The notes beneath the pieces are model-generated. The model was not told where the DNA came from. It ran no database searches and was given only the letters and a program-made list of their open reading frames with translations. Positions 23,181 to 61,604 of a DNA stretch of 64,000 nt are shown piece by piece. Source of the stretch: Candidatus Moraniibacteriota bacterium (GTDB taxonomy: Bacteria > Patescibacteriota > Minisyncoccia > Moranbacterales > GWC2-37-73); contig JAAXUC010000001.1 of assembly GCA_013336225.1 (NCBI GenBank), positions 99,949 to 163,948 on the forward strand. Reading direction: 5' to 3'. Positions within the stretch are counted from its first letter, which is position 1, and each line of letters starts with the position of its first letter. Position numbers and translations under genes: made by a program.

Positions 23181-23215
23181 GACATTTTTATAATAAAATT
23201 GTAGTATTAATCATT

Positions 23216-25174
23216 ATGAAATTTGAAATCAATTCAAAATATAAACCAGCGGGTGATCAACCTCAAGCAATTGAGGCGCTTATCTATGGGTTGGAACATC
23301 GGGAGAAATTTCAAACTTTGCTGGGTGTGACCGGATCGGGAAAAACTTTCACCATGGCCAATGTGATTGAGCACGTGCAAAAGCCAACTTTGGTGATTGC
23401 GCCAAACAAAACTTTGGCGGCGCAGTTGGTACAAGAGTTTCGAACTTTTTTTCCGAAAAATTCGGTGGAATATTTTGTTTCATATTATGACTATTATCAG
23501 CCAGAAGCTTACATTTCTTCGTCTGATACATATATTGAAAAGGAAGTGCAGATCAATGAGGAGATTGATCGATTGCGTCATGCGGCCACCAGTGGACTGC
23601 TGTCGCGGCGCGATGTGATCATTGTAGCTTCAGTTTCTTGCATCTATGGTTTGGGTTCTCCGGATTATTATCGCGAAGGAACTGCTGAGGTGATTGTGGG
23701 TGAAAAGAAGAATCGCGAAGAGTTGATGAAAGGCATGGTGGACATGCAATATCAGCGCAGCGATGTTTTGGCCCGCGGAAAATTTCGAGTGACGGGCGAC
23801 ACGATTGAGGTGATGACACCGAGCAGGGAAATTGTAACGCGCATTGAACTTGAATATGGAATCGTAAAAAGAATTTATGAATACGATTTTCTGACTGGCG
23901 AAAAATTGGGCGAGCTGGAAAAGACACTCATTTTTCCAGCCAAGCATTTCGTGGTGCCGGAGGAGATCATGCAGGGAGCTTTGAGTGAAATTGAAAAAGA
24001 GGCAGCAGAGCGAGTGAAATATTTCAGGGATAATAATAAGTTGTTGGAGGCGGAAAGAATCGAAAGACGCACTAGGCAAGATTTGGAGATGATGCGCGAA
24101 GTGGGATATTGCAATGGAATTGAAAATTATTCTCGCTATTTGACTGAGCGCGAAGCTGGCGAGCCACCGTACACTTTGGTGGATTATTTCCCGAAAGATT
24201 TCTTGATGATCATCGATGAATCGCATGTGACGATTCCGCAATTGAATGCGATGTATGCCGGAGACCGTTCGCGCAAGAATGCGCTGATTGATAATGGTTT
24301 TCGTTTGCCGAGCGCCTATGACAACAGACCACTGCGATTCCCTGAATTTGAAGAGCGAATCAATCAATTGATTTTCACCACCGCCACCCCGGCTGCCTAT
24401 GAAAAAGAACATTCAAGCTCGGTGGCGCAGCAGATCATTAGGCCAACTGGCTTGCTTGATCCTGAAATTATTATCAAATCCGCCAAGGGCCAAGTGAAAG
24501 ATGTGCTCAGCGAAATTGAAAAAGTTGTGGCCAAAAAAGAGCGAGTGCTGATCACTGCACTGACGAAAAAAATGGCAGAAGATTTGTCAGAATTTTTGAA
24601 AGAACATGGAATACGCTGCGAATATCTGCATTCCGATGTGGACACGCTTGATCGCGTGCTCATTTTGCAGGGACTGCGCAAAGGTGATTTTGATGTGTTG
24701 GTGGGCGTGAATCTACTCCGCGAAGGTTTGGATTTGCCGGAAGTTTCTTTGGTGACAATTTTGGATGCTGATAAAGAAGGCTTTTTGCGCAGTGAAACTT
24801 CGCTCATTCAAACAATTGGACGTGCCGCTCGAAACATCAATGGTCGCGTGATTTTGTATGCCGATAACATCACCGGTTCAATGAAAAGAGCGATTGATGA
24901 AACGAATCGCAGACGAACTCTGCAAGCTGCATATAACAAGAAGCATCATATTACGCCAAAGACGATTGAGAAAAATATTAAATCAATTGTGGATCATGAA
25001 ATTAATCCTGAAGTTCCATTGGATTTTTCCAAATTGGAATCATTGGAAGACATTGCTGGATATATTAAGCAAAAAGAAAAAGAGATGAAAAATGCGGCAC
25101 GCTCAATGGAATTTGAAAAAGCCGCCCTCATTCGCGATGAGATTTCCACGCTGCGGAAATTGCAGCTCAGGTGA
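23216..25174 (+). CDS. uvrB: Excinuclease ABC subunit B
   Basis: [13 protein letters not shown] Walker A, helicase motifs, and the C-terminal UVR domain ([20 protein letters not shown]). Start taken at ATG 23216 ([16 protein letters not shown]). Confidence 0.95.
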
Positions 25175-25204
25175 TGCTGTTGTTTGTGTTATCTTTTTTA
25201 TTCT

Positions 25205-25230
25205 GGATCCCGGATCAAGTCCGGGACGAC
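25205..25230. repeat. Solo copy of the CCGGA-TCAAG-TCCGG hairpin repeat (same family as the argS and ileS-upstream elements)
   Basis: GGATCCCGGATCAAGTCCGGGACGAC, nearly identical to GATTCCGGATCAAGTCCGGAATGAC at 45723-45747. Confidence 0.5.
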
Positions 25231-25442
25231 ATTGCTATGTCGATTTCTTAACGCTCATCACTTACATTTTACCTACGCACTTCGCAATGTGTTCATAAAA
25301 TCCAAAACCCCATTGTATTTTGTATATTGCATTTTGTATGTTGAAGCTAGCCTTGTGCATTTTCAAATAACCCTGTAAAATAGGGCAAGTGTCAGAAAAG
25401 ACATTCTTTTACTAACAAATTAAGTATTAATATAAATATCCT

Positions 25443-26564
25443 ATGGAAAACATGGAGAAAACAGAAGAAAAAGAAATTGTGGAAAATGAAACCGATGTGA
25501 TTGAAGAAAAAACTGAGAAAGCAAAAAGCTCAGCAATGATCGCAGTAGGCAAAGCATTGGAATGTGTCAAGGGAAAAGTTAAATGTCTGAAAGACGGTAC
25601 ATGCAAATGTGATAATAAAAAATGGATTATCTTAGTAGTTGCTATCTTGGTTATTGCTATTAGTGCAAGCTATGGATACAAAGTGTATCGACAAAAAGTT
25701 GATGTTGGATCAGAGGCTGTTAAAGCAAAAGTTGAAAAATTCTTGAGCGAAAATGTGCCACCAACTGCCAAGACTGAAATTAAAGACATCACTGAAGATG
25801 GAAGTTTGTATAAACTTACGGTCGTTGTTGATAAGCAAGAAATTCCAGTATTTGTGACACGCGATGGAAAGAAGCTTATGCAAGCGCAAACAGTGATGGA
25901 ATTGGATAAGGCTCCTGCGGATCCTGCTCAACAAGCACAAGCTCCAGAGGAACAGAAGGAAATTCCAAAAACTGATAAGCCAACAGTTGATTTGTATGTC
26001 ATGTCATTTTGCCCGTATGGAAACAAAGCAGAGGATACCTTGAAGCCAGTGTATGATCTGTTGAAAAATAAAGTTAATTTTAACTTTCATTACATTGTAA
26101 GTACTAGTGGTAGCGATATCAAGTCACTTCATGGACCTAAGGAAGTTACTGAAAATGAAAAAGAAGCTTGCGTGCTGAAAACATATGGCAAGGACAAGTG
26201 GATGGCTATTGTGACATATGTGAACACGAACTGTGGAAGTGATGGTGCTTGCTTCGAGGTTGGTGCAAAAACATTGGCAATCGATCCTGTAAAAGTTAAT
26301 AATTGTGTTACTGCGCAAGGTCTTACTTTGATGCAACAAAATGAGAAAGATTCAAATGCAGCAAACGCAACCGGTTCACCAACGATGACAATTAATGGAG
26401 TTTCAAGTAATGCTGTGTATAAATATGACAATGCTGAGGCTTATAAGCAAGCAATTTGCTCAGGATTTAAAACAGCACCGAAGGAATGTCAAACAACTCT
26501 TACTGATAAGACCGCTACTGGAGAAGCAACGCCAGCCGGTGCTTGCACAACACCTCAACAGTAA
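25443..26564 (+). CDS. Membrane-anchored protein with thioredoxin-fold (DsbA-like) C-terminal domain
   Basis: N-terminal TM helix; the central region TVDLYVMSFCPYGNKAEDTLKPVYDLL...GSPTMTINGV resembles a thioredoxin/DsbA fold with a CPYG active-site-like motif; Cys-rich tail. Confidence 0.4.
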   Translation: MENMEKTEEKEIVENETDVIEEKTEKAKSSAMIAVGKALECVKGKVKCLKDGTCKCDNKKWIILVVAILVIAISASYGYKVYRQKVDVGSEAVKAKVEKFLSENVPPTAKTEIKDITEDGSLYKLTVVVDKQEIPVFVTRDGKKLMQAQTVMELDKAPADPAQQAQAPEEQKEIPKTDKPTVDLYVMSFCPYGNKAEDTLKPVYDLLKNKVNFNFHYIVSTSGSDIKSLHGPKEVTENEKEACVLKTYGKDKWMAIVTYVNTNCGSDGACFEVGAKTLAIDPVKVNNCVTAQGLTLMQQNEKDSNAANATGSPTMTINGVSSNAVYKYDNAEAYKQAICSGFKTAPKECQTTLTDKTATGEATPAGACTTPQQ

Positions 26565-26584
26565 AAATAGATTTTAAATATTTA

Positions 26585-26615
26585 AAAGAGGGGCAATTGA
26601 GCCCCTCTTTTTTTA
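26585..26615 (+). terminator. Terminator after the thioredoxin-like gene
   Basis: AGAGGGGCAATTGAGCCCCTCTTTTTTT. Confidence 0.6.
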
Positions 26616-26685
26616 ATGATTAATAATATGAAAGTGTTTTATTTTGATCATGTTTAATATGCGGTTCTGGGAATAGAAGAAAACC

Positions 26686-26800
26686 GTTTTTGTTTCACCT
26701 GTTTTCTCTCGAGAGCACATTCGCAGCCGAAATTCATGGATGCTCACTCGGACCCCACTGTCGTTCGCTACGGCTTCAAGAGAAAACAGGCTCACAAAAA
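26686..26800 (+). repeat. About 115-nt palindromic element, copy 1 of 4 (conserved core GAGAGCAC..GCAGCCGAAATyyATGGCTGC..CTCACTCGGACC..CGCTACGGCTTCAAGA inside a 24-27 bp outer stem)
   Basis: Near-identical cores at 26686-26800, 52597-52715, 54410-54527 (reverse orientation) and 59271-59388; the outer arms are inverted repeats that differ between copies but stay complementary. Confidence 0.7.
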
Positions 26801-26947
26801 CTATATGTCGAGTATGATCTTATTGGTTGATAAAAATCGGAATGTGTTATATCGTGGATGGAAAGTAATATGATAGTTTGACGTAGTAACTTAAGTACCT
26901 CAAAAGGGGAAGCTTTTTGCGTTTATGAATAAATAATTGAAATTTTT

Positions 26948-29848
26948 ATGGAAAATAATAGGATAATCATCAAAGGTGCGCGAGAGCACAATTTGAAAAA
27001 TATTGATCTAGAGTTGCCCCGAGACAAATTTATTGTCTTTACGGGTCTTTCAGGCTCTGGAAAATCAACTTTGGCGTTTGATACGATTTTTGCCGAAGGG
27101 CAAAGGAGATATTTGGAAAGTTTGTCGAGTTATGCGCGGCAGTTTTTGGGGCAAATGGACAAGCCTGATGTTGACTATATTGAAGGACTTTCACCAGCCA
27201 TTTCGATTGACCAAAAATCAACTTCGCACAATCCGCGCTCAACAGTTGGAACAGTGACGGAGGTGCATGATTATTTGCGACTGCTGTATGCGAAAATTGG
27301 AATTCCTCATTGCAGTGTTTGCAATCGTGAAATTTCCAAGCTTTCCACGGATGAAATTGTGGATAGGATTTTGGAGATGGGAGAAAAAAACAAATCGCAA
27401 GCAATTGAGATTTCTTCGCCGATTGTCAGGGAAAGAAAAGGGGAATATTTAGCACTGCTGGATGAAATGTGGAAGAAGGGATTTTCTGAGGCGCTGGTGA
27501 ATGGAAAACTTATTCGCCTGGAAGATTTTAAGGAAATAAAATTGGAGCGTTACAAAAAGCATAGTATCGATATTATTGTTGATAAAATTGAGGTTAATGA
27601 AGAAAATCTTTCTAGAATTTTTGAAGGAGTGGAGAAAGCGCTGCGACTTTCAAAGGGGATTGTGAAAGTGAAATGCGTGCAAGAAGCTAAGGGTCAAAAG
27701 CTAAAAGCTAAAAGCTCAGACTCATTTGAGGTTGAGCAGATTTTCAATCAGAATTTGTCATGTCCGATTCATGATGTGGAATTTCCTGAAATGGAGCCGC
27801 GACTTTTTTCTTTCAATTCTCCCTATGGCGCTTGCGAAGCTTGTGAAGGCTTGGGGCTTAAAAAGGAAATTGATCCTTTGCGCGTGATGCCAGACTTAAA
27901 CAAAACCATTGGCGAGGGAGGTATCATGCCATGGAGCTTCAAACCGAACAATTATCAAGGCACAGTGCTGAAAGCGGTGGCCGCATATTATAATATTCAA
28001 GACAACAAGCGCCTGCGAGATCTGTCGAAAGATAAGCTGGATATTTTGATGTATGGCACAGAGGATGAGGATTTAATCAAGGTTTCATATCATTTCAAAA
28101 GCGGTAGTGGGCATTATAATGTGCGCTGGAAAGGCGTGGTGGCATGGCTACAGGAAAGATATCGCACCACAACTTCAGATGCTGTGCGCACGGATATTGA
28201 AAAATATATGTCGCAAAAACCTTGCTCTGCTTGCAAAGGTAGTCGCTATAAGAGTGATGTGCTTTTGGTGAGCGTGGGCGAAAAGAATATCTATGAAATT
28301 TCGACGCTGAGTATTTGGCAAGGCATTGATTTTTTCAAGAATTTGAAATTGACACATCGCGAGGATTTGATTGCGGGCAGGATTTTAAAGGAAATCATTG
28401 CGCGCATGGTTTTTTTGAACAATGTTGGTTTGGATTATCTGACTTTGGGCAGAGCAGCTTATTCTCTTTCAGGCGGAGAATCGCAACGCATTCGCTTGGC
28501 TTCGCAAATCGGATCGCAATTGGTGGGCGTGCTGTATATCTTAGATGAACCATCCATTGGACTTCATGCGCGTGATAATGCCAAACTCATTGAAACCCTT
28601 AAGCATCTGCAAAAGATCGGGAACACTTTGATCGTGATCGAGCATGATGAAGAGATGATGCGCGCTGCTGATTGGTTGGTGGATATTGGACCAGGAGCAG
28701 GCAAACATGGCGGCGAAGTGGTGGCTGAAGGCTGTCCTGAGGATGTGATCAATAACCCAAAATCGCTGACTGGAAAATATTTGCGTCATGAACTGGAAAT
28801 TGAGGTTCCAAATTTTCGTAGGCAAATAAAAAGAAAAAGAAGCATCACAGTGCGTGGAGCCAGTGAACATAATCTTAAAAATGTGACAGTGGAATTTCCA
28901 CTAAAAGTTTTCACCTGCGTGACTGGAGTTTCTGGCTCTGGAAAATCAACTTTGGTTGAAGAAACTTTGTATAAAGCGTTGGCCAATAAGTTGCATCGCG
29001 CCCTGGATGTGCCAGCCAGGCATAATGAAATTATCGGCATTGAAAATATCAACAAGGTGATCATGATCGATCAATCTCCAATTGGTCGCACGCCGCGCAG
29101 CAATCCTGCAACATACACAGGATTATTCACGCACATCCGAGAACTTTTTGCGCAAACCAAAGATGCCAAAATGCGCGGCTATGGGCCAGGCAGATTTTCA
29201 TTCAATGTGGCAGGTGGGCGCTGTGACAACTGCAGTGGTGAGGGATATCTTAAAATTGAAATGCAATTCATGCCTGATGTGTATTTGCCATGCGATGTTT
29301 GCAAAAGCAAACGTTACAACAGTGAGACACTGCAAGTTAAATATAAAGGAAAAAATATTTCACAGGTATTGGCCATGACAGTTTCAGAAGGAGTTGAATT
29401 TTTTGGAGCATTTTCCAAGATTCATGAACCGCTGAAAGTCTTGGAAGAAGTTGGCCTTGGCTATATTGAGTTGGGACAAAGTGCCACCACTCTTTCTGGC
29501 GGCGAAGCGCAGCGCATCAAGCTCGCCTCTGAGCTTTCAAGGCGCGCCACTGGTGACACTTTATACATCTTGGATGAACCAACCACTGGACTTCATTTTG
29601 ATGACATTAAAAAATTGTTGGTAGTGCTTAATCGCTTGGTTGATGCTGGAAACACAGTGGTGGTGATTGAGCATAATATGGATGTGATAAAAACAGCTGA
29701 TTGGATTATTGATATGGGGCCAGAAGGTGGCGACGGTGGCGGAAAAGTTGTGGTGACTGGCCCACCAGAGGAAATCATTAAATATTATAAAGAAAGTCAC
29801 ACGGCTAAATATTTGCGACAAGTTTTGAAACCGAAAAGCCTAACTTAA
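26948..29848 (+). CDS. uvrA: Excinuclease ABC subunit A
   Basis: 966 aa; two ABC ATPase modules (GLSGSGKST twice, LSGGE signature twice) and Zn-finger Cys pairs; contains an in-frame AAGCTAAAAGCT repeat (27688-27715). Confidence 0.95.
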
Positions 29849-29926
29849 AAGTTCCTAAAGTTCAAAAAGAAGAAAAGAAAAAAGCCAATACGTTTTTACG
29901 TATTGGCTTTTGTTGGGGCAGCTCGT

Positions 29927-30376
29927 TCAGTTCTTATTTAAAAGAGCTGTTATTTCTGAGCACCTCAAATCCAGTAGAATGTCTGAGAGATGTTCATAGG
30001 CTTCGTTAATAAGTTTGCTTGCAATTAGGATTAATTCAATTTGTGTTTTATTTGCGAGCGTCTTTTTTATTTCCGGCCATTGCTTGATGTGAATGCAAGT
30101 GGATTCAAGTTCTGGATTTCTGACAAGTGCACAACGTTTTCTGACACAATTGCGCACGAGCAGCGCAAAGCTTTTCAAGCGTGTTGGATAGTAGAGGCGA
30201 AAATTGGGATATGACTTTTGAAGGGTCTTTTTTAAATCCCTGATTTGTTCGGTGGCCAAGCTTTCCTTGCAGAGATCAGGCAAATATGTCTCTAGGAATA
30301 GCACGATCTCTTCTAGAAAAAAAATGAGCTGATCTCTTTCAATTGTTGCTACGGACTTGGTTAGAGGTCTCTTCAT
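29927..30376 (-). CDS. Hypothetical protein (149 aa), second gene of a 2-gene cassette between uvrA and uvrC
   Basis: Intact ORF whose start overlaps the stop of the upstream ORF (ATGA); no recognisable motif. Confidence 0.4.
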   Translation of the reverse strand: MKRPLTKSVATIERDQLIFFLEEIVLFLETYLPDLCKESLATEQIRDLKKTLQKSYPNFRLYYPTRLKSFALLVRNCVRKRCALVRNPELESTCIHIKQWPEIKKTLANKTQIELILIASKLINEAYEHLSDILLDLRCSEITALLNKN

Positions 30377-30699
30377 TGCTTTTCCTCCCTCAATAAGCTA
30401 GTTTGAATTTTTATAAAGCCATTCGTTCTTAATAAATTAAAGAGTTTGTGAAAAAGTTCATAGAACGCATCTGCAGTTGAAATATATCCAGATATATCGA
30501 GACGAGCATATTTCCCAAGAATCGTTAACATTTTTGAGGCTTCTTGCGGCGGATCAATGACTGACGGATCTGAATTTTTAAGCTTTGAAATCATTTCTGA
30601 AAGTTCCCTATGATTAGATCCGCAGGCATGAGGAAGCAATAAGGCTTCTTTGACTTCATTCAGATAGTCTTGAGCTTGCTGGGTTAATGTGAAGTGCAT
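30373..30699 (-). CDS. Hypothetical protein (108 aa), first gene of the 2-gene cassette
   Basis: Intact ORF translationally coupled to the 149-aa ORF; no recognisable motif. Confidence 0.4.
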   Translation of the reverse strand: MHFTLTQQAQDYLNEVKEALLLPHACGSNHRELSEMISKLKNSDPSVIDPPQEASKMLTILGKYARLDISGYISTADAFYELFHKLFNLLRTNGFIKIQTSLLREEKQ

Positions 30700-30788
30700 A
30701 TCGCTTCCTCCTTTGCATTTTGGCGCATTCTTATGCTATGTTGTTGTTAAATAGCCATGGTTTATAATTATATTTCCAAATCCCCAGG

Positions 30789-32063
30789 ATGTCAAAAGTA
30801 GCCGAGAAAATCAAGAATTTGCCACTGGCGCCTGGCGTGTATTTTTTTTGTGATTCAAAAGGCAAAATCTTGTATATTGGCAAGGCGACAAACTTAAAAA
30901 CTCGCGTGCAGTCATATTTTCGCAGTGACATTGCGTCCTCGCGAAGTCAGTGGATTGCTCAGATGATTGCGCAAGTGGCAAGCATAGATTTTGAACAAAC
31001 AGACTCAGTTCTTGAGGCTTTGATTTTGGAGAGTAATTTGATCAAGAAACATCAGCCAAAATATAACACCTTGGAAAAGGATGATAAATCTTTTTCATAT
31101 TTCGTAATTACTAAAGAAGATTTTCCAAAATTTTTGATTCTTAGAAAAACCGATATTGATCTTGAAAAGCTAGAAGCTAAAAGTTATAAGCTAAAAGCTA
31201 TCTATGGTCCTTACATTTCCAAGCAGCAGATGCAAACTGCGCTTAAGATTATTCGCAGAATTTTTCCATTTCATAGTGGCAAACAAAAAACTGAAAAAGG
31301 TTGTTTGGATTTTCAAATCAGTCTTTGTCCTGGGCCATATGCTGGGGCAATTTCCAAGATTGATTATAAAAAAAATATTCGTGGGATCGAAATGATTTTG
31401 CAGGGCAAGAAAAAAAGTTTGGTTTCAAAATTGGAAAAAGAGATGTTGTTGCATTCAAAGAAAAACGAATTTGAAAAAGCGGCTATCTTGAGAAATAAGA
31501 TTTTTGCACTTAATCATATTCGCGATGTGGCACTGATGTCGCGAGACTTTGAAGAAAAGTCATTAGTCATCGGTCATCAGTCATTCGGCCTGCGCATTGA
31601 GGCGTATGACATCTCAAACATTTCCGGAGAGCACGCAGTTGGCTCAATGATTGTTTTTGAGAATGGTCAGGCGAATAAAAATCAATATCGAAAATTCAAA
31701 ATTAAAACCGTGGAAGGTTCAAATGATGTGGCAATGATGAAAGAAGTTTTGTCGCGGCGTTTCAATAATGATTGGGCAATGCCAGATTTAATCTTATTGG
31801 ATGGCGGGCTTGGACATTTGAACATGGCAGAGGAATTGTTGCATCAGGAATTGGGATTAGTAGTCGCAATTGTTGGTGTGGCAAAAGGACCAACAAGAAA
31901 GAAGCTTGATCTTAGACGTGATAGCAGGTTGCGAGCAGATATGAATAAACGGATGGAAAATATCTTGGAAAATGAGAATCTCATGAAATCTATCATGGAT
32001 GAAGCGCATCGTTTTGCAATTGGATACCATAGAAAATTGAGAAGTAAGAGCTTCTTGGGATAG
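30789..32063 (+). CDS. uvrC: UvrC-like excinuclease (GIY-YIG + RNase H-like endonuclease domains, lacks C-terminal HhH)
   Basis: GIY-YIG N-terminus (GVYFFCDSKGKILYIGKATNLKTRVQSYF), the UvrC endonuclease block IEAYDISNISGEHAVGSMIVFENGQ. At 424 aa it is shorter than the canonical roughly 600 aa. Contains in-frame AAGCTAAAAGCT and GTCAT repeats. Confidence 0.75.
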   Translation: MSKVAEKIKNLPLAPGVYFFCDSKGKILYIGKATNLKTRVQSYFRSDIASSRSQWIAQMIAQVASIDFEQTDSVLEALILESNLIKKHQPKYNTLEKDDKSFSYFVITKEDFPKFLILRKTDIDLEKLEAKSYKLKAIYGPYISKQQMQTALKIIRRIFPFHSGKQKTEKGCLDFQISLCPGPYAGAISKIDYKKNIRGIEMILQGKKKSLVSKLEKEMLLHSKKNEFEKAAILRNKIFALNHIRDVALMSRDFEEKSLVIGHQSFGLRIEAYDISNISGEHAVGSMIVFENGQANKNQYRKFKIKTVEGSNDVAMMKEVLSRRFNNDWAMPDLILLDGGLGHLNMAEELLHQELGLVVAIVGVAKGPTRKKLDLRRDSRLRADMNKRMENILENENLMKSIMDEAHRFAIGYHRKLRSKSFLG

Positions 32064-32379
32064 CTGAAAGACATTTGAAAACATCGCGTATTATTAGTTG
32101 CAAATCAAGACTGAGATTCGGGAAGATAATCGAAGCTCAGTTTTGTGCAATTGTTTGAATAAAAAAAGCTACATTCTTAGAAAGTGAAAAATGTTTGTTT
32201 TTCGAATATTTTTATGTAAAAAATAGGATCAGCCAATTGGTTGATGCTGTTTTTTTGTTGTGCCTGCATTAATATTGCTCAGGCTTTACTTTCCATTGTT
32301 TTCCTGCTACCATTACCCGCAGTAGAAATTCGAAACATTTTAGATTGATAACGCTAAATACATAATACTTTCCCTCAAT

Positions 32380-35172
32380 ATGGCTTCAAAAAAAATAGCA
32401 TCATCCAATAACAATGAAATCGTAATCAAGGGTGCGCGCGTGAACAATCTTAAGAATATTGATGTGAACATCCCGCGAGATAAATTCGTGGTGATCACTG
32501 GACTTTCAGGCTCAGGAAAATCTTCTTTGGCATTCGATACTATTTACGCGGAAGGCAATCGTCGCTATATGGAGGGACTTTCTTCATACGCTCGCAACTT
32601 TTTGGATCCATCAGTGAAGCCTGACGTGGACAAAATTGAAAATCTTTCGCCGCCAATTTCAATTGATCAAAAAAGTATTTCACGTTCGCCGCGCTCAACG
32701 GTGGGAACATTAACGGAAGTTTATGACTATTTGCGCATCATGTATGCAAAAGTCGGAATTTTGCATTGTCCTGAGTGTGGGACTTCCATGCAAAAAAGAA
32801 GCAATCAAGAAATCTTGGATGAAATTTTGACTTTTTCTCATCACACTCAAATTGCAATCTTGGCAAAGCCGAAAGAAGCTGCGGTTGGCAAGGAGCTTTT
32901 AAAGCACATTGCACAAATGGGATATGCCCGCGTGCGTTTCAATGGAAAAATGTTCACCGTGGCAGAAGCCATGATGCTTGAAGAAAATGAAATTGAAACT
33001 GATGTTGAGATGGTTATTGACCGAGTTATTTTGGACAAGAAAAAACCTGATACAGAAAGAATGTTGGATAGTGTGGAAACTGCCATGAAAATCGGTGGAA
33101 ATTCAATGAAAATTTTGTTCGACAATGTGGAAGAGCGCGGATATAATCAGGATTTCTTTTGCAGTGAGTGTGGAGTGAAAATAAAAGAGGTGACGCCAAG
33201 ACACTTTTCTTTTAATAGTCCTGAAGGAGCATGTGATACTTGCGCTGGTTTGGGTTACACCTTGAAAGTAAATGAGGAATTGATCATCCCTAATAAAAAT
33301 CTCTCTTTAATGGAGGGTGCCATTCAACCCTGGAGCAAATCTGGCGGAAAAATAAACGGGCAAAGTGCCGCGCTTTTGACTTTGAAAAATGTGGCCAAGA
33401 AATATAAATTTTCCATGAATGTACCAGTAAAGAAATTCACTGCGGTGCAACTGGGAATTGTTTTGTATGGCAATGAGGGATTTGAAGGTGTGATTCCTGC
33501 TCTTGAGAAAAAATATCAAGAAACGAAATCTGATTATGTGCGCAGTGAAATTGAAAAATATATGACCGCGCATACTTGTCCGACTTGCGATGGCAAGCGT
33601 CTCAAAAAAGAATTCTTGGCAGTAGAAGTTCAGGGAAAAACAATTGACATGATGGTTTCAATGAGCGTCACGCATTTGCGAGAACTGTTTGAAGATGCTG
33701 AAAATTGGACACAAACTCAGCAAGAAAAAAGCATTGCCAAATCAATTGTGCGAGAAATTTTGCAACGCTTGGGTGCACTGGAAAATGTTGGTTTGGAATA
33801 TTTGAATTTGGGTCGCTCTGCTCAGACAATTTCTGGAGGAGAAGCGCAGCGCATTCGCTTGGCTGCACAACTCAATTCTCAATTGATGGGAATTGTCTAT
33901 GTTTTGGATGAGCCATCAATCGGGCTTCATAGTAGAGATACGGAAAAACTTATCAACACGATTAAGGCCCTGCAGGGCGTTGGAAATTCACTAATTGTGG
34001 TTGAGCATGATGAAAGCATCATCAGAGCTGCTGATTGGATTGTGGATATGGGTCCTGGTGCTGGAGAAGAAGGTGGAATTGTGGTTTTTGAAGGTGACTA
34101 CAAAAAATTAATGAAGTCTAAAAATCTTACCGCTCAGTATATTTCAAAAAAGAAAAAAGTTTCTGACAAGAAAAAAAATCGCACTGGCAGTGGAAAATTT
34201 ATTGAAATTATTGGAGCTGAAGAAAACAACTTGAAAAAAATCGACGTTTCAATTCCATTGGATAAATTTGTGGTTATTTGTGGTGTTTCAGGCAGTGGGA
34301 AATCAACATTAGTAAAGAATATTTTAGCTAAAGCACTATCTCGGCATTTTTATAATACCAAGGATTTGCCAGGCAAGCACACTAAAATCAAAGGATTTGA
34401 ACATGTTAAAAAAGTCATCAGCATCAATCAAAATCCAATCGGACGCACGCCGCGCTCAAATGCTGCAACATATACTGGAGTGTTTTCTCATATTCGCGAC
34501 TTGTTTGCCGGAGTGGAAGAAGCTAAGAATAGGAACTATACTGCCAGCCGCTTCAGTTTCAATATGAAAGGCGGACGCTGCGAAGTTTGTCAGGGAGAAG
34601 GATCAAAAAAAATTGAAATGCATTTGTTGCCTGACATGTATGTGAAATGCGAAGCTTGTGACGGAACCAGGTTTGGCAAGAAAACTTTAGAGATTGAATA
34701 TAAAGGATTTAATGTGGCACAGATTCTGGATATGGATGTGCGTTTGGCACTACGCTTTTTTGCTCGTCACCCACTCATTGCTGAAAAACTTAAGACCATG
34801 GAGGATGTGGGCTTGGGTTATCTCAAGCTTGGACAAAGTGCAACTAATCTTTCTGGTGGAGAGGCGCAGCGCATCAAACTGGCCACCGAGCTTGCACGCA
34901 AATCAACTGGAAACACTTTATATATTCTGGATGAACCAACGGCGGGGCTGCACTTTGATGATATCCGAAAATTGCTTTTAGTTTTAAATGCATTGGTTGA
35001 CAAGGGAAACACGGTGATTGTGGTTGAACACAATCTGGATGTGATTCGCGACGCTGATCATGTCATTGAGCTTGGGCCAGATGGCGGTGAGCTTGGAGGA
35101 CATCTGACTTTCGCTGGCACACCAGACCAATTGAAGAAGGATAAGAAGAGTTGGACGGCAAAATACCTCTAA
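32380..35172 (+). CDS. Second full-length UvrA paralog
   Basis: 930 aa with the same domain order as uvrA at 26948 (GLSGSGKSS, two LSGGE signatures, Zn-finger cysteines), but clearly diverged sequence. Confidence 0.9.
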
Positions 35173-35174
35173 AG

Positions 35175-35300
35175 AGAAATTTTGAATTATGAATTTCGAA
35201 TTTCGAATAAAATCTGAATGATTGAACGTTTAAATCATTAAAAATTGAGAAATTAGAAATTGGTTCAAAATTAAAAATTGGAAATTCAAAATTAAAGAAA
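35175..35300. repeat. AT-rich GAAATT/GAATTT low-complexity repeat block (family also at 3230-3353 and, in-frame, in recG 60420-60560)
   Basis: gaatttcgaatttcgaataaaatctgaat...aaattggaaattcaaaattaaag shares aaaatctgaat and cgaaatt units with the 3230-3353 block. Confidence 0.5.
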
Positions 35301-42623: not shown

Positions 42624-44288
42624 ATGAAAGAATCAATTCAAAAACTTATATCCAAAGCTGTTTTAGCGGCAAAAAAGGCTCATTCTTGGGCTGATTTTGA
42701 GATGCCAGAAATAACAGTGGATTATCCCAAGAGTGAACAATTTGGCGATTATACGACCAACATTGCCCTTATTTTGGCTAAAAAAGCTGGGAAAAGCCCG
42801 ATGGAAACGGCAAATTATCTCAAAGAGATTATTTGTCATCCTGAACTTGTTTCAGGATCCCGCAAGGTTACTAATGGCGAGCAAAGCACAGAGATCCTGA
42901 AACAAGTTCAGGATGACATGGCGGGGATTTTTGAAAAAATTGAAGTGGCGGCGCCGGGATATTTGAATTTCCATCTTTCCCAGCAATATTTGCAAGATTT
43001 GACGAAAAAAATCAATATTGAAAAAAACAGTTTTGGAAATTCGCAGATTGGAAAAGATGTTAAAATCAATAATGAATTTATTTCCGCCAATCCGACTGGG
43101 CCGCTGCATCTTGGAAATGGTCGCGGTGGATTTTATGGCGACTCACTTACGAGGGTTTTTAGAAAAGCTGGATTTGAAGTTACTAATGAATATTATGTGA
43201 ATGATGCTGGCGGACAAGTTGAAAAACTTGGACACAGTGTGCTTAAAGATGAGGAAGCTGCCTACATAGGAGAATATATCGATGACTTGAATGTGAAATA
43301 TGCAGAGCTTGGCGATGTGCGAAAAGTTGGTCAACTGGCGGCCAAGGAAGTTTTGGAAAATATCATCAAGAAAACTGCCAAGGAAAAAATGCAGATTGTT
43401 TTTGACGTGTGGATGAGCGAACAAAAATTGAGCGATGATGGATATGATCAGCGTGCAATTGAAATGCTCAAAGAAAAAAAAATGACCTATGAATCAGAAG
43501 GAGCACTGTGGCTGCGAACAACTGATTTTGGCGATGATAAAGACAGGGTGCTGATCAAGAAAGACGGTAAAAATGCCTATATGGCTGGCGATTGTGGATA
43601 TATGCTGAATAAGATTGAAAGAGGCTATTCTCGCTTGGTGATGGGGCTGGGAGCTGATCATCACGGTTATGTTTCGCGGCTGAAGGCAGTGGCTTTGGCG
43701 CTTGGTTTTGCAGGAGATTTTCGAATCATCATTTCTCAGATGGTGCGGTTGGTGAAAGATGGAAAGGAAGCTCGCATGAGCAAACGCGCTGGCAACGTAA
43801 TTAATTTGGATGATCTGATTGATGAGATTGGGCATGATGTGACTAGATTTTTCTTCTTGATGTATTCTCCGGACACGCACATGAATTTTGATTTAGGATT
43901 GGCAAAAGAACGCAGCGCCAAGAATCCAGTTTTCTATGTGCAATATGCGCATGCACGCATTTGCAGTATCCTGGAAAAAGCTGAGCATGGAACAGAAAAT
44001 GCAAAACTCGAATTATTGGTTCATGAAAAAGAATTGAGCTTAATCAGGGAGCTCAACAAATTTCCAGAATTGATTGAAACAATTGCTGAAAATTATGAAG
44101 TGCATAAACTGCCACAATATGCCATGAAATTGGCTGACAAATTCCATTCTTTTTATGATGCTTGTCGGGTGATTGACGAAGAAAATCCGCAGCTGACAAA
44201 TGCTAGACTTTTCTTGATAAATGCTGTTAGAATAGTGCTAGCTGAGACCCTGGGCCTTATTGGGGTGGATGCGCCAGAAAAAATGTAA
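42624..44288 (+). CDS. argS: Arginyl-tRNA synthetase
   Basis: N-terminal Arg_tRNA_synt_N domain, a HIGH-like region (ANPTGPLHLGNGRGG), a KMSKS-like block (RMSKRAG), and the anticodon-binding DALR domain. Carries an in-frame 83-bp palindromic insertion at 42835-42917. Confidence 0.9.
   Translation: MKESIQKLISKAVLAAKKAHSWADFEMPEITVDYPKSEQFGDYTTNIALILAKKAGKSPMETANYLKEIICHPELVSGSRKVTNGEQSTEILKQVQDDMAGIFEKIEVAAPGYLNFHLSQQYLQDLTKKINIEKNSFGNSQIGKDVKINNEFISANPTGPLHLGNGRGGFYGDSLTRVFRKAGFEVTNEYYVNDAGGQVEKLGHSVLKDEEAAYIGEYIDDLNVKYAELGDVRKVGQLAAKEVLENIIKKTAKEKMQIVFDVWMSEQKLSDDGYDQRAIEMLKEKKMTYESEGALWLRTTDFGDDKDRVLIKKDGKNAYMAGDCGYMLNKIERGYSRLVMGLGADHHGYVSRLKAVALALGFAGDFRIIISQMVRLVKDGKEARMSKRAGNVINLDDLIDEIGHDVTRFFFLMYSPDTHMNFDLGLAKERSAKNPVFYVQYAHARICSILEKAEHGTENAKLELLVHEKELSLIRELNKFPELIETIAENYEVHKLPQYAMKLADKFHSFYDACRVIDEENPQLTNARLFLINAVRIVLAETLGLIGVDAPEKM
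42835..42917 (+). mobile_element. 83-bp miniature palindromic element with perfect 25-bp terminal inverted repeats, inserted in-frame in argS
   Basis: GTCATCCTGAACTTGTTTCAGGATC at 42835-42859 and its exact reverse complement at 42893-42917 flank a 33-bp spacer. Each arm is itself a hairpin (CCTGAA-cttgt-TTCAGG). It corresponds to an extra roughly 28 aa relative to canonical ArgS. Confidence 0.75.
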
Positions 44289-49255: not shown

Positions 49256-49298
49256 AAAACTCAGCCGTTGCATTGCATATGCAGCGGCTTTTTATTAT

Positions 49299-49421
49299 CG
49301 AACGTAGTGAGCGAAATGATTTGTCAGCAGACAAAATCATTTCCGTCCGCCAGCTGGCGGAGAGTGATGATAACAAATTGGTTTAATACCTTGCGGCTTG
49401 CCCCGGGGTTAATACCTGTTT
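49299..49421 (+). repeat. About 120-bp repeat element, copy a (13-bp stem hairpin GAAATGATTTGTC-agcag-GACAAAATCATTTC and GGTTTAATACC units), immediately upstream of recO
   Basis: Shares GAGCGAAATGATTTGTCAGCAGACAAaaTCATTTCCG and GGTTTAATACCT with 50272-50400; a diverged reverse-oriented relative lies at 62575-62640. Confidence 0.6.
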
Positions 49422-50170: not shown

Positions 50171-50271
50171 AAAAACTCAAATCCAAAATCTAAATGTCAA
50201 ATAAATTACTTAAATCCAAATGTGTTAATCATCCCATTTGGATTTTTGTTATTAGGATTTTATTATCTAGC

Positions 50272-50400
50272 AAAACGAGCGAAATGATTTGTCAGCAGAC
50301 AATCATTTCCGAGTGAGTGACGATACCAAAAGGTTTAATACCTCGAGGCTTGCCTCGTGAGCCCAAAGGGTCCAGGGCTTGCCCTGGGGTATTAATACCC
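50272..50400 (+). repeat. About 120-bp repeat element, copy b (direct repeat of 49299-49421), upstream of the 50515 gene; includes CTTG-loop hairpins CGAGG-cttg-CCTCG and CCAGGG-cttg-CCCTGG
   Basis: Sequence identity with copy a over the hairpin core; see copy a. Confidence 0.6.
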
Positions 50401-50514
50401 TTTTATTTGACATTTGGTATTGAGATTTTTGATTTTGCTTGTTTTTTGTTTTAACAATACTGCATTTTGTGGTACAATATTATTGAACATAAAAATAATA
50501 TAGAAATAAAATAT

Positions 50515-52444: not shown

Positions 52445-52510
52445 TCGGTCATTAGTCATCCGTCATCAAAAAATTCATCAAGCCTTTGAGGCGCGATGAC
52501 AGATGACGGA
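52445..52510 (+). terminator. Long GTCAT-repeat hairpin after the 50515 gene
   Basis: GTCGGTCATTAGTCATCCGTCATC ... GATGACAGATGACGGATGAC inverted repeat. The GTCAT-repeat family also occurs at 14265-14320 and in-frame in uvrC at 31558-31590. Confidence 0.45.
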
Positions 52511-52596
52511 TGACTTTTAATTATACGAATTAATATATTTATTCATAACAAGTATGGAATCATACGCAATATATGGTTTTGAAAAAGGTAAGTAAT

Positions 52597-52715
52597 GTTT
52601 TTGATTTGCCTATTTCCTCTTGAGAGCACGCTTCGCAGCCGAAATCTATGGCTGCTCACTCGGACCTCGCTGTCGCTCGCTACGGCTTCAAGAGAAAATA
52701 GGCAAATCAAAAACC
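52597..52715 (+). repeat. About 115-nt palindromic element, copy 2 (outer stem sequence differs from copy 1 but remains complementary)
   Basis: GTTTTTGATTTGCCTATTTCCTCTTGA...core...TCAAGAGAAAATAGGCAAATCAAAAAC. Confidence 0.7.
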
Positions 52716-52764
52716 ACATATTGCGCTTGATCCTAAGTATGCTGGACTTAATTGAAATTTGGTT

Positions 52765-52770
52765 TATAAT
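52765..52770 (+). promoter_or_regulatory. TATAAT -10 box 8 nt upstream of the tgt ATG (leaderless-type promoter)
   Basis: GGTTTATAATgggacgatATG. Confidence 0.4.
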
Positions 52771-52778
52771 GGGACGAT

Positions 52779-53897
52779 ATGTTTACATTGATTTCACAGC
52801 AACAAAAGAAGCGCATTGGATTGCTTAAAACTAAAAACGGTGTAATTAATACGCCGTTTTTCATGCCGATTGCAACTAAGGGCGCGGTAAAAAATGTTTC
52901 TCCTGAAGATTTGCTGGCTTTGGGCGCGGAAATTGTGCTGGGAAACACTTATCATCTTTGGCTCAGGCCAGGAGATGATCTTATTGCGCGGGCAGGTGGA
53001 CTCCATAAATTCATGCATTGGAGTGGACCAATTTTGACTGATTCTGGTGGTTATCAAGTTTTTTCACTTGGCGCGCGAGCCAAAGAAAAATATGGGACCA
53101 ATGGCGTCAAACTTAGTGAGCAAGGAGTTGATTTTGCTGATCCCTTAAATGGCAGCCGACATTTCATGTCGCCGGAAAAATCAATTGACATTCAACTTAA
53201 TCTTGGTTCTGACATGATCATGGTGCTGGATGAATGTCCGCCATATCCATGCTCACACAGTGCTGCCAAAAAATCACTGGAACTCACCACGCGTTGGGCT
53301 GCTCGCTGCCTGACTTATTTTCAAGAAAAAACCAAGCATCTTTCCAGGGAAAACCGTCCCTTGCTTTTCGCGATTGTGCAGGGAAGTGTCTATGAAGATT
53401 TGCGAAAAGAATCAGCCAAGCAATTGACTGCCATGGATTTCGATGGTTTTGCAATTGGCGGTGTGGCAGTGGGCGAACCTAGAAAACATCTCTATGAAAT
53501 TTTGCAGTGGGTGGTGCCCTTTTTGCCTGCTGACAAACCGCGCTATTTGATGGGACTTGGAAAACCTGAAGAATTAGTGGCAGCTGTTGAGGCTGGAATG
53601 GATATGTTTGATTGTGTCATTCCCACGAGAGAAGGTAGGCACGGAAGACTTTTTGTTTGGAAAGAGGGGAACAATTTGAGTGGAGATTTTTATGAAACAA
53701 TAAATATCAATAATGAACAATTCAGGGAAGACTTCACACCGATAGACTCAAATTGTGATTGCTATGCTTGCAAAAACTTCACCAAAGCTTATCTCAATCA
53801 TTTGCTCAGAACAAATGAGCCATTCTTTCTGAAGCTTGCTTCAGTGCATAATTTGAATTTCTATCTGAAATTGATGAAATTGCTCGGCGAAAAATGA
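52779..53897 (+). CDS. tgt: Queuine tRNA-ribosyltransferase
   Basis: GVINTPFFMPIATKGAVK, LGNTYHL, DSGGYQ, and Zn site CDCYAC...H. Confidence 0.9.
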   Translation: MFTLISQQQKKRIGLLKTKNGVINTPFFMPIATKGAVKNVSPEDLLALGAEIVLGNTYHLWLRPGDDLIARAGGLHKFMHWSGPILTDSGGYQVFSLGARAKEKYGTNGVKLSEQGVDFADPLNGSRHFMSPEKSIDIQLNLGSDMIMVLDECPPYPCSHSAAKKSLELTTRWAARCLTYFQEKTKHLSRENRPLLFAIVQGSVYEDLRKESAKQLTAMDFDGFAIGGVAVGEPRKHLYEILQWVVPFLPADKPRYLMGLGKPEELVAAVEAGMDMFDCVIPTREGRHGRLFVWKEGNNLSGDFYETININNEQFREDFTPIDSNCDCYACKNFTKAYLNHLLRTNEPFFLKLASVHNLNFYLKLMKLLGEK

Positions 53898-54379: not shown

Positions 54380-54409
54380 TATGTATAATACTGGATCATG
54401 TGCAATATT

Positions 54410-54527
54410 TTTTTTGTTTCACCTGTTTTTTCTTGAAGCCGTAGCGAACGACAGTGAGGTCCGAGTGAGCAGCCATGAATTTCGGCTGCGAAACGTGCTC
54501 TCAAGAGAAAACAGGTGAAACAAAAAA
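54410..54527 (-). repeat. About 115-nt palindromic element, copy 3 (reverse orientation)
   Basis: Reverse complement matches the copy 1/2 core (GAGAGCACGTTTCGCAGCCGAAATTCATGGCTGCTCACTCGGACCTCACTGTCGTTCGCTACGGCTTCAAGA). Confidence 0.7.
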
Positions 54528-54777
54528 ATCCTTCTTTTGCTCCTGGAATATTATATTGCGAGTGACCCACAATACCTGGTTCTTCTGATTTACTCATCTC
54601 CTTTTTTGGCACATTTTTGACTGAAAATCATAGTCAAAAAACTTACTCGCTCTCGCTGCGTAGGTCCTAAAAAGAAAATAAGCAAATCAGAAGGCATCAA
54701 TCTTGCTTTAAGTGTATTTGCAAAAAAAGCTTATTTTAGGTATTATTGATTCATAAGTCTTATGGATATTACATCTT

Positions 54778-59092: not shown

Positions 59093-59270
59093 ATAGTCTT
59101 CTTTTAATTCTAAAGTCTAATTCTTAAGGTCTAAAACAAGTCTAAATTCTAATTTATAATTTTACACTTTAGATTTTTAAAGTTAGTCTTTAGATTTATG
59201 GTTTTTATTGGCAAATAAGATACTTGTGTATTATAACCTTTTTTGTTTTTTGCCTCAAGCGCAATGTGCG

Positions 59271-59388
59271 ATTTTTGTTTCACCTGCTTTCTCTTGAGAG
59301 CACGCTTCACAGCTGAAATCTATGGCTGTTCGCTCGGACCTCGCTGTCGCTCGCTACGGCTTCAAGAAAAAACAGGCGAAACAAAAAT
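59271..59388 (+). repeat. About 115-nt palindromic element, copy 4 (carries a compensatory double change in the internal hairpin: GCAGCC/GGCTGC to ACAGCT/GGCTGT)
   Basis: ATTTTTGTTTCACCTGCTTTCTCTTGAGAGCACGCTTCACAGCTGAAATCTATGGCTGTTCGCTCGGACC...CGCTACGGCTTCAAGAAAAAACAGGCGAAACAAAAATG. Confidence 0.7.
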
Positions 59389-59399
59389 GCTTCTTTCTT

Positions 59400-61604
59400 T
59401 TATTCAAGATGGATGTTAGCTTGAAATTTTCCAAGTTCTTTTTGCAGGAGAGGAAAGTTGCCAAGGTCGGGACTATCAAGCAAGGTTTGCTCGGCGTAGT
59501 CATGGGCAATTTCAATCAATTTTGCATTTGCCAGGTGCTCCATGGCGATGTCTGGCAACCCTGATTGCCTGGTGCCCAGGAATTCTCCTGGTCCTCGTAG
59601 TGCAAGATCTTCTTCAGCAATCTTGAAACCGTTGGAAGTTTTTTCCATCGCCCCCAGGCGCGATTTAGCTTTGGTGGTTTTGCTGCCAGTGAACAAGAAG
59701 CAATAGGATTGCTTGTCGGAGCGACCGACGCGCCCACGAAATTGATGTAATTGCGAAAGACCGAAACGTTCAGCATCTTCAATGATGATAATGGTGGCAT
59801 TGGGAATGTCGATGCCAACTTCCACCACTGAGGTTGCAACCAAAATGTCATATTTTTTATCTTTGAAATCCTGCATCACTTTTTCCTTTTCGGTCGATTT
59901 CAAACGACCATGCAAAAGTCCAAGACTGAGTTTTGGGAAAATCTCACGGGACAAATGTTCATGTTCTTGGGTTGCAGCTTTGAGTTCAGTGAGTTTTTCT
60001 GATTCTTCTACTAGCGGAAAAATGATGAAAGCCTGATGACCACTGGCGATTTCTTTTTCAACAAAATCATAAATTTCTTTGCGTTTGCTGTGAGTGATGA
60101 TTTCAGTGACGATGGACTTTCTGTTTTTTGGCATTTCATCCAGTACAGACAAATCAAGATTTCCAAAATATGCCAAGGTCAAAGTGCGGGGAATGGGAGT
60201 GGCTGTCATGGTCAAGAAATGAGGAATTTTACCTGGCAGTCCGTCATTGATTTTGGAAATTTGCTGCTGCAAATATGCGCGTTGAGCGACGCCAAAACGA
60301 TGTTGTTCATCCACAATCACCAACGCCAAATTTTTGAATTTAACAGCCTCTTGAATGATGGCATGGGTGCCGATAATTATATCAATATTGCCATTGCGCA
60401 GTTCAGCTATTAATTGTTCTTTAGACAACTTATTATTTTTTATGGATTGTAATTTTGAATTTTTAATTTCTAATTTCGATTGAATTTTTAATGTTTTAAT
60501 TTTTAAACATTCATCATTCTGATTTGACTCAAAATTCAAAATTGGAAATTCAAAATTATTAATAAGCTTGTATGCATTTGTCAGCAGTCCAATGTTTATG
60601 TCATATGAGGCGAATATCTTGCAGATACTCTCATAATGCTGGCGAGCCAAAACTTCTGTGGGAGCCATGATCGACACTTGAAATCCAGCTTTGATGGCAT
60701 TCAGGCTTGCGATGGCAGCCACGATTGTTTTGCCGCTGCCCACATCTCCATTTAAAAGGCGATTCATTGGCAGTGGCTTTTCCAGATCTTTCAAGATTTG
60801 AAAAGCAGCTTTGCGCTGAGCATCGGTCAGGGTGAAGGGGAGATCGGAAACAAATTTTTTGATGAGTTCTTCATTAAAGTGCATGGAGACAGCATTTTGT
60901 TTGTCCCAAGAGATTTTCACTTTTTGAGTTGCGAGTTGCACTAAAAATATTTGCTGGAAAGCAAAACGTTTTTGAGCCAGTTCAAATTCTTGCAGTGTTT
61001 TGGGAAAATGCAAGGATTTCACTGCTTCAGACAGCTTGGGCAGATGCAGGCCTTTGAGAATGTTTTCAGGCAGTGGATCAATCAGTGCGTCGGCATATTT
61101 GATCAGGTTCTGCATTTGCCAGCGAATCCATTTGGAAGTGAGACCTTCGGTTTCGGGATAGATTGGCACCAGGCGCCCAGTGTTGGTGGGAGTGCGCGAA
61201 GAAAGTTCCCAAGCTGGACTTCCAAAAAAAAGACCATTTCGATCCTCGGAAACTTTGCCAGAGAGACGCACGCCCTTGCTGACAGTCAGTGAGTCGCTAA
61301 TATATGGCTGATTGAACCACACGGCGCGCACAGTGCCAGTTTCATCGCTGACAAAACATTCCGTGATCATCATTTTCTTTTTCCAAGTGCGCACCATTTT
61401 GCTTTGAGAAATTTCGCCCATCACGGTTGCTGCTTCTCCTGCTTGTAAATCAGCAATTTCAATCCTTTCGGAATAATCTTCATAGCGAAAAGGGAAGTGC
61501 AGCAAAAAATCCTCCACCGTTTCCAGGTTGAGTTTTTTCAAAATTGGCGCATATCTAAGGCCGATGCGCGGAATTTTTTCCAGCTTTATTTTCAAATAAT
61601 CCAT
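59400..61604 (-). CDS. recG: ATP-dependent DNA helicase RecG (with about 45-aa insertion encoded by an AT-rich GAAATT-type repeat)
   Basis: Wedge/OB N-terminus, helicase motifs GDVGSGKT and DEQHRFGV, TRG motif region. Insertion INNFEFPILNFESNQ...LEIKNSKLQSIKNN at DNA 60420-60560 matches the intergenic repeat family at 3230-3353 and 35175-35300. Confidence 0.9.
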   Translation of the reverse strand: MDYLKIKLEKIPRIGLRYAPILKKLNLETVEDFLLHFPFRYEDYSERIEIADLQAGEAATVMGEISQSKMVRTWKKKMMITECFVSDETGTVRAVWFNQPYISDSLTVSKGVRLSGKVSEDRNGLFFGSPAWELSSRTPTNTGRLVPIYPETEGLTSKWIRWQMQNLIKYADALIDPLPENILKGLHLPKLSEAVKSLHFPKTLQEFELAQKRFAFQQIFLVQLATQKVKISWDKQNAVSMHFNEELIKKFVSDLPFTLTDAQRKAAFQILKDLEKPLPMNRLLNGDVGSGKTIVAAIASLNAIKAGFQVSIMAPTEVLARQHYESICKIFASYDINIGLLTNAYKLINNFEFPILNFESNQNDECLKIKTLKIQSKLEIKNSKLQSIKNNKLSKEQLIAELRNGNIDIIIGTHAIIQEAVKFKNLALVIVDEQHRFGVAQRAYLQQQISKINDGLPGKIPHFLTMTATPIPRTLTLAYFGNLDLSVLDEMPKNRKSIVTEIITHSKRKEIYDFVEKEIASGHQAFIIFPLVEESEKLTELKAATQEHEHLSREIFPKLSLGLLHGRLKSTEKEKVMQDFKDKKYDILVATSVVEVGIDIPNATIIIIEDAERFGLSQLHQFRGRVGRSDKQSYCFLFTGSKTTKAKSRLGAMEKTSNGFKIAEEDLALRGPGEFLGTRQSGLPDIAMEHLANAKLIEIAHDYAEQTLLDSPDLGNFPLLQKELGKFQANIHLE

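Follow-up and report, generated by a model that had tools for sequence, protein, structure and literature searches.

The hairpin lying just upstream of tgt in this Candidatus Moranbacteria (CPR/Patescibacteria) MAG is probably one copy of a new, lineage-restricted MITE-like element, and not a tgt leader. The window, by which we mean the whole 64-kb stretch of DNA analysed, is housekeeping chromosome (rpoB/C, ftsK, recA, uvrABC with two uvrA paralogs, argS, ileS, recO, tgt, trpS and recG); its RecG is identical to NCBI NTW26844.1, and transposase, integrase and reverse transcriptase genes were all absent from the 64 kb. At least six copies of the repeat, here termed family A, occur in about 70 kb, five of them in the window (c1 to c5) and a partial sixth outside it (c6), which is roughly one copy per 11 kb. 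The family shows the attributes by which MITEs are recognised, namely a length below 500 bp, no coding capacity, terminal inverted repeats, dispersed copies, and filled versus empty sites. It would thus be a non-autonomous, non-coding repeat of about 175 nt that has spread through the intergenic regions of one genome, moved in trans by a transposase presumably encoded elsewhere in that genome. A partner IS or transposase with matching ends was not found in the 64 kb and its small flanks.

The copy at tgt (c2) contains a 118-nt inner hairpin at window positions 52597–52714 with a 27-bp terminal stem, laid out as GTTTTTGATTTGCCTATTTCCTCTTGA - 64-nt core - TCAAGAGAAAATAGGCAAATCAAAAAC, in which the 27-nt left arm (52597–52623) is the partner of the 27-nt right arm (52688–52714). 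Perfect pairing of this outer stem, as claimed in the earlier note, is a slight overstatement of a close match: 26 of the 27 pairs are Watson-Crick, and one is a C·A on the + strand, the strand on which that note had read the element (a G·U on the − strand). Inside the stem is a smaller hairpin, P2 (GCAGCC / 9-nt loop GAAATCTAT / GGCTGC, 52635–52655), followed by a conserved unpaired core, AGCGAGCGACAGCGAGGTCCGAGTGA (52656–52681), which is purine-rich on the − strand and occupies invariant columns of the alignment. Two motifs of this region, GTAGCGAGCGA (52673–52683, comprising core sequence and the adjacent GT of 52682–52683) and TCCGAGTGAG (52655–52664), are also present in a second repeat family, B, described below. 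A partner IS would be expected to have ends matching GGATCAT.CGCAATAT or GTTTTTG..TTTCTCTTGA. On either strand, the inner hairpin has a T-run at its start and CAAAAAC at its end. The fold energy of c2 on the + strand was −51.7 kcal/mol, compared with −26.4 kcal/mol for shuffles (z = −8.3).

Several familiar identities for such a hairpin were considered and rejected. Six-frame translations of four copies (c1 to c4) share no intact frame, with stops and a 1-nt indel in c1; a small protein gene had been a candidate on the basis of an ORF across three copies, but the frames are inconsistent. An intrinsic terminator would require a U-tract after the GC-rich hairpin, which is missing, and a terminator scan returned none at the element. 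For a bidirectional terminator the order of the T- and A-runs is wrong, and for an integron attC site the ends misfit RYYYAAC/GTTRRRY and the neighbours are housekeeping genes. Scanning the window with Rfam 15 at gathering thresholds recovered two tRNAs and nothing else, and relaxing the cutoff to E ≤ 10 over 52500–52800 gave just spurious miRNA-precursor hairpin matches, far under thresholds; Rfam signal for hammerhead, twister and other ribozymes, and for a preQ1 riboswitch, was absent.

We assessed how the family is distributed with a covariance model built from four copies (c1 to c4), which these copies matched at 117–144 bits (E 1e-27 to 1e-34). The earlier note had recognised c2 as the second copy of a repeat family, and rightly so: 52597–52714, which scores 139.7 bits on the − strand (antisense to tgt), can be aligned over its full length with copy 1 (26686–26801) and with two more full copies that the note had not listed, at 54410–54527 (reverse strand) and 59272–59387. 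A 24-nt core pattern has three matches in the window versus 0.00 expected, and the 27-bp inverted repeat is confined there to family A copies. With its outer arms (see below), c1 spans 26646–26819 on the − strand (117 bits), between a GILT-like gene and uvrA, and c3 spans 54393–54568 on the + strand (144.1 bits), downstream of arsR, and is the sole copy in the opposite genomic orientation. Copy c4 (59252–59399, − strand, 138.3 bits) begins immediately behind the stop codon of recG. With filters off, the model also detected c5 (54581–54693, − strand, 43.7 bits, E 1e-8), a diverged member that forms a subfamily of its own at about 60% identity; it has no outer frame, but its architecture is that of the other copies throughout, with a c2-type stem. 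Copies c3 and c5 face each other head-to-head, 53 nt apart, which suggests a hot spot for insertion where synteny breaks after arsR.

The sixth copy, c6, is partial (3′ half) and lies at the very edge of a Logan contig (L008:1–45, about 2.2 kb to the left of the window). Its hairpin part is followed by spacer and an outer arm, and about 12 nt separate the end of that arm from the stop codon of a T2SSE gene that runs convergently. Logan contigs were from sample SRR11449212, the same as the source of the MAG. Short-read contigs of this sample (e.g. L002) end within family A copies, as expected because the family is a dispersed repeat. Overall, the copies adjoin unrelated genes in both orientations (uvrA, tgt, arsR/trpS, recG/PGM and the T2SSE gene).

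Other repeated sequences were also observed in the window. A third repeat family, intergenic and AT-rich (AATTTTGAATT.TGAATTTCGAATTTCGAAT...), has copies at 3227–3337, 35178–35296 and 60451–60560 with 74–91% identity. An excision-repair cluster at 23156–35172 comprises uvrB, the GILT-like gene, uvrA, uvrC and a diverged second uvrA; the two uvrA paralogs (26948–29848 and 32380–35172) are about 72% identical in stretches, and c1 lies just upstream of the first. Within argS there is an 84-nt near-perfect palindrome at 42835–42918, in frame, with 25-nt arms GTCATCCTGAACTTGTTTCAGGATC / GATCCTGAAACAAGTTCAGGATGAC. Relatives align poorly over this stretch, and a blastn match to the relative's contig L005 skips 42806–42926; it may represent a palindromic element inserted in frame, as is known from Rickettsia.

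The repeated unit of family A is larger than the 118-nt hairpin. A second, outer inverted repeat of 16–20 bp encloses the hairpin in c1, c2 and c3, and its arm, read outward from the hairpin, follows ATATTGCG..TGATCC. The composites so formed are of near-constant length (174 nt in c1, 178 nt in c2 and 176 nt in c3, or about 175 nt). That of c2 occupies 52556–52733, with the left outer arm GGAATCATACGCAATATATGG at 52556–52576 and its partner, the right outer arm CACATATTGCGCTTGATCC, at 52715–52733. Between outer arm and hairpin is a purine-rich spacer of 20–25 nt on one side (20 nt in c2, at 52577–52596) and a gap of 2–4 nt on the other. Similarity of the outer flanks reached P < 0.002 in three pairwise comparisons. 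Copy c4 has a single outer arm (59252–59271) and a 12-nt spacer (59388–59399).

Direct repeats of 5–7 bp, short and imperfect, flank the complete composites: TTATT in c1, AAGTATG in c2 and AATAC in c3. In c2 the left repeat (52550–52556) shares one base, the first, with the outer arm; the right repeat lies at 52735–52741. Set against comparable AT-rich sequence of the window, the summed length of the flanking repeats has a joint P of about 0.007 for the three composites. The repeats suggest target-site duplications, which is what they would be under the MITE-like reading; they are also alike (GTATG/GTATT/TTATT), and this could be target preference or chance.

Comparison of orthologous loci separates filled from empty sites. 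The gene order recO - DUF11 protein - tgt - arsR is kept in four relatives, which are different species and not strains (Tgt 80–88% identical), and their DUF11-tgt spacers measure about 84, 65, 45 and 44 nt (L003–L006) versus 350 nt here and contain just a promoter, with no element. At the c4 site the recG-PGM spacer is 54 nt in L009/L010 versus 307 nt here, again between species, the relative's RecG being of equal length (734 aa) and 83% identical. We therefore regard c2 as an insertion and not a tgt control element, because the orthologous spacers are short and element-free. The possibility that the c4 insertion supplied the last recG codons was discarded, as the relative on L009 has the same C-terminal codons. 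Beside c4, the recG-PGM spacer at 59093–59250 also holds an AT-rich stretch of about 100 nt in which TCTAAAG/TTAGA motifs recur, and this stretch is missing from the 54-nt spacer of L009.

Family A appeared restricted to this lineage in every collection searched. The covariance model had zero matches over about 95 kb of the relatives. An exact pattern of the most conserved 23 nt gave one chance match among GTDB representative genomes, in a GC-rich Rhodopila coding region, and exact scans with two different core patterns gave 0 matches in JGI metagenomes. Exact-pattern scanning of viral contigs likewise gave 0 matches, and no plasmid or phage matched the element in blastn. Translations of the element were concatenated and searched against a 5.8-billion-protein database for spurious ORFs on other copies; this recovered nothing. 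No report of repeat families of this kind was found in the literature on CPR/Patescibacteria.

We examined whether the stems covary using pair counts from a hand alignment of five copies (c1 to c5) over a 39-pair structure, consisting of the 27-bp P1, a 6-bp extension with one bulge and the 6-bp inner hairpin P2. Pairing was retained in 95.9% of cells, compared with 42–54% in slid controls, and both sides had changed in 15 of the 39 pairs, a number reached by 0 of 500 shuffles. The earlier observation that the outer stem of c2 differs from that of copy 1 was borne out: four positions per arm differ, and all four pairs are compensated (T-A>A-T, C-G>T-A, A-T>G-C and G-C>A-T, relative to c1, c3 and c4). 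The strongest covariation signal, however, is not in c2 as had been proposed, but in c5, where five of six P2 pairs are replaced on both sides (the stem being swapped for TTGACT/AGTCAA) and the 9-nt loop is kept unchanged (GAAAATCAT). Covariation in this alignment shows a conserved hairpin; by itself it does not prove an RNA, because the copies had been aligned by hand and because conversion between the arms of a DNA palindrome can give the appearance of compensated changes.

The imperfections of the stems are unevenly divided between the strands. Non-Watson-Crick cells of transition type are G·U in 14 cases on the strand opposite to that of the earlier note and in two cases on the strand it had read (9 versus 2 by distinct columns), and column 12/107 runs through the series A-U, G·U, G-C. 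It is on this opposite strand, too, that each of the five copies folds more stably, with a gap of 3.6–16.6 kcal/mol under RNA parameters and smaller gaps in the same direction under DNA parameters. For c2, RNA energies were −58.5 kcal/mol on the − strand versus −51.7 kcal/mol on the + strand for the inner hairpin, and −80.8 kcal/mol on the favoured strand versus −67.9 kcal/mol for the composite. GC skew is positive across the window, and deamination of an exposed + strand would be expected to produce the opposite pattern. Given the one-strand G·U asymmetry and the same-strand stability of all copies, we conclude that the hairpin is in all likelihood constrained as a single-stranded form of one strand, either RNA or ssDNA, which for c2 is antisense to tgt. 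Stem changes would then pass through G·U/G·T intermediates on that strand, and propagation of the element, or a co-opted role, would rely on the strand-specific single-stranded hairpin. A DDE element that moves by cut-and-paste as double-stranded DNA would not be expected to show this one-strand G·U pattern. Conservation of the core above the inverted repeats is also the reverse of that in a typical MITE or REPIN and counts against the MITE-like reading; in this respect the element looks more like a functional RNA or protein-binding module.

These features raise the alternative that family A is a structured RNA family used by the host on the strand opposite to that of the earlier note, as 3′-UTR stabilisers or processing sites or as small antisense RNAs, with the core and 9-nt loop as binding sites and the stem as a scaffold or RNase III substrate. 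It would accommodate the near-invariant core with compensated stem variation, the energy gap between strands, the failure of deamination on the G-rich + strand to predict the G·U bias, and the column 12/107 series, which is a classic progression of RNA intermediates. Copies c3, c4 and c6 are moreover sense-oriented in the 3′ regions of arsR, recG and the T2SSE gene, just downstream of each. However, c1, c2 and c5 would need promoters antisense to uvrA, tgt and trpS, and none is predicted near c2. Neither a U-tract nor a known functional signature nor an Rfam family accompanies the hairpin, and absence of family A from the relatives and collections searched would be unusual for a useful RNA. 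The strand asymmetry is itself ambiguous, since G·T is the best-tolerated mismatch in ssDNA hairpins too and the asymmetry holds with DNA parameters. We therefore consider a host-used RNA unlikely, although it is compatible with a mobile origin.

Selection of a one-strand hairpin could also arise from REPIN-like ssDNA-hairpin transposition by an HUH/Y1 transposase (IS200/IS605- or RAYT-type), for which the strand-specific stability bias under DNA parameters would be expected. Five of the six copies share one genomic orientation, and a GTAG tetranucleotide stands at the junction on the favoured strand of c1 to c4. However, GTAG is not kept in c5 (CTAC) or c6 (ATAG), and in most copies it is the leading-strand template that favours the hairpin, instead of the lagging-strand template, which is the exposed one. 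Y1 transposases are not known to produce flanking direct repeats, and such repeats are present here. There is likewise no RAYT or TnpA gene in the window, the arms are not short palindromic REPs, and it is the spacer, not the ends, that is best conserved. The overall form nevertheless fits published descriptions of REPINs, with inverted ends and a spacer, a hairpin of about 110 nt and compensatory changes (PMC3116915). On balance, this route of transposition is doubtful.

Repeat family B bears on a broader proposal. It is a structured repeat of about 150 nt with copies at 50258–50408 and 49289–49405 and, in a species-level relative, at L003:4270–4419. The L003 copy is 92.7% identical to 50258–50408, compared with about 75–77% for coding DNA, and sits at a different locus, downstream of arsR; family A, unlike family B, was not found in other genomes or collections examined. 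The structure of family B consists of a GAAATGATTTGTC/GACAATCATTTC hairpin and two GCTTGC-loop hairpins, and it had no match in Rfam. With the favoured strand of family A it shares GTAG(C/T)GAGCGA and TCCGAGTGAG, in the same order, and it is similarly intergenic, highly structured and missing from the orthologous site in a relative; it differs in having another fold and no long terminal inverted repeat. Conceivably, then, families A and B together represent an undescribed strand-specific, structured, self-propagating RNA/ssDNA element of CPR, in which the conserved purine-rich module GTAGCGAGCGA ... TCCGAGTGAG is read by a dedicated protein, the hairpin evolves via G·U intermediates and the core flips between inverted repeats. 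We hold this to be a long shot. If true, it would be something other than a decayed IS, such as a small-RNA gene that is mobile, or an element that an unknown enzyme copies by way of a single-stranded intermediate.

The orientation of the hairpin within its frame is not constant. The spacer is on the same side in c1 to c3 and on the opposite side in c4 and c6, and the hairpin is thus flipped relative to the frame in two of the five framed copies; no frame without a hairpin occurs within the window. Under the MITE-like reading, the central hairpin would either invert between its own 27-bp arms or insert either way into the outer element, and either process would leave c4 and c6 flipped. The same two orientations, together with the long and nearly perfect inverted repeats, could be taken for an inverton, in which a site-specific recombinase flips the 64-bp core between the 27-bp inverted repeats and so switches expression of neighbouring genes. 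We regard this as very improbable: the core has no promoter-like sequence, the invertible segment would be very short, the neighbours are housekeeping and not surface or phase-variable genes, and the window encodes no recombinase. The centre of a palindrome can in any case be expected to flip through ordinary recombination between the arms.

The arrangement at tgt itself (ORF 52779–53897, PF01702, E 1e-140) also bears on the role of c2. The best sigma-70-like site, TGGACT-16-TATAAT (52743–52770, + strand), is predicted to be the tgt promoter; it falls between the element and the ATG, 8 nt short of the latter, and the promoter-to-ATG distance is similarly short in the relatives. Its −10 box (TATAAT, 52765–52770) is 50 nt from the hairpin, and not about 60 nt as had been estimated. 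Further upstream, after the DUF11 gene and outside the repeat, is a terminator-like compound hairpin (52453–52515, + strand) that is a weak hairpin match to the covariance model. It contains a repeated heptamer-like unit, AGTCATCCGTCATC, and is missing from the relatives' DUF11-tgt spacer; tandem units like AGTCATCCGTCATC are also seen within uvrC (AGTCATTAGTCATCGGTCATC, 31558–31578).

The earlier note had implied a structured RNA in the orientation of tgt that transcription of the gene might traverse, and this part of it is not supported, in view of the downstream promoter, the terminator-like hairpin on the upstream side, the relatives' element-free tgt, the copies at unrelated genes in both orientations, and stem imperfections that read as C·A on the tgt-sense strand but as G·U on the antisense one (14 versus 2 cells). 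A cis-regulatory tgt leader, such as a riboswitch or attenuator of queuosine metabolism transcribed in sense with tgt, would explain a highly structured element just upstream of the gene on the same strand as copy 1, but it is scarcely tenable given the promoter position, the same element beside five unrelated genes, the four relatives whose tgt has no leader, the lack of any preQ1 or other riboswitch match even at E ≤ 10, the C·A mismatches on the sense strand and a stem followed by no U-tract. More generally, a tgt-specific regulatory role is very unlikely because the promoter is downstream, Rfam detected no riboswitch, and copies stand beside unrelated genes in both orientations. The effect of c2 on tgt is probably small, with upstream sequence moved about 180 nt further from an intact promoter, and c2 should not be annotated as a tgt or queuosine regulatory element.

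Seen as a MITE-like element, family A indicates that even a small, streamlined CPR/Patescibacteria genome leaves room for a selfish or co-opted element to expand. A dispersed hairpin repeat of this kind also causes short-read assemblies of the organism to fragment. In addition, the family lends itself to asking at which level, DNA, ssDNA or RNA, bacterial ‘MITEs’ are under constraint, and makes a compact test case because the core is conserved above the stems, wobble pairs fall on one strand only and the hairpin can flip relative to its frame.

Among known elements, REPINs have two inverted ends around a spacer, a hairpin of about 110 nt and compensatory changes (PMC3116915). Family A resembles them in its spacer of about 60–70 nt, in forming a hairpin in ssDNA or mRNA, and in being non-autonomous and confined to one lineage (PMC3116915). 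However, REPINs have invariant 16-mer ends over short palindromic REPs and a variable spacer (PMC3116915), whereas in family A the spacer is conserved and the arms covary, so that the invariant ends and less conserved spacer which typify REPINs are not seen here. No RAYT gene was seen in the window, and possible target duplications are present, which further sets family A apart.

The nearest comparison is with prokaryotic MITEs, which are shorter than 500 bp, carry terminal inverted repeats of up to about 30 bp, have direct repeats in young copies, and show AT-rich intergenic targets and very stable stem-loop transcripts (PMC10969869). Like Coxiella QMITE2, Neisseria Correia, pneumococcal RUP and enterobacterial ERIC elements, family A is about 120–180 nt long with terminal inverted repeats of 20–30 bp and no ORF (PMC10969869). 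Its copies are intergenic in either orientation at AT-rich sites with possible direct repeats of 5–9 bp, the predicted hairpin is very stable, and presence or absence varies among related genomes, all as in MITEs (PMC10969869). Family A differs from them in having no sequence similarity to any and no known partner IS. It is further distinguished by a GC-rich core conserved above the inverted repeats, by strand-specific G·U imperfections, by a double inverted repeat whose inner part occurs in both orientations, and by its small-genome CPR host.
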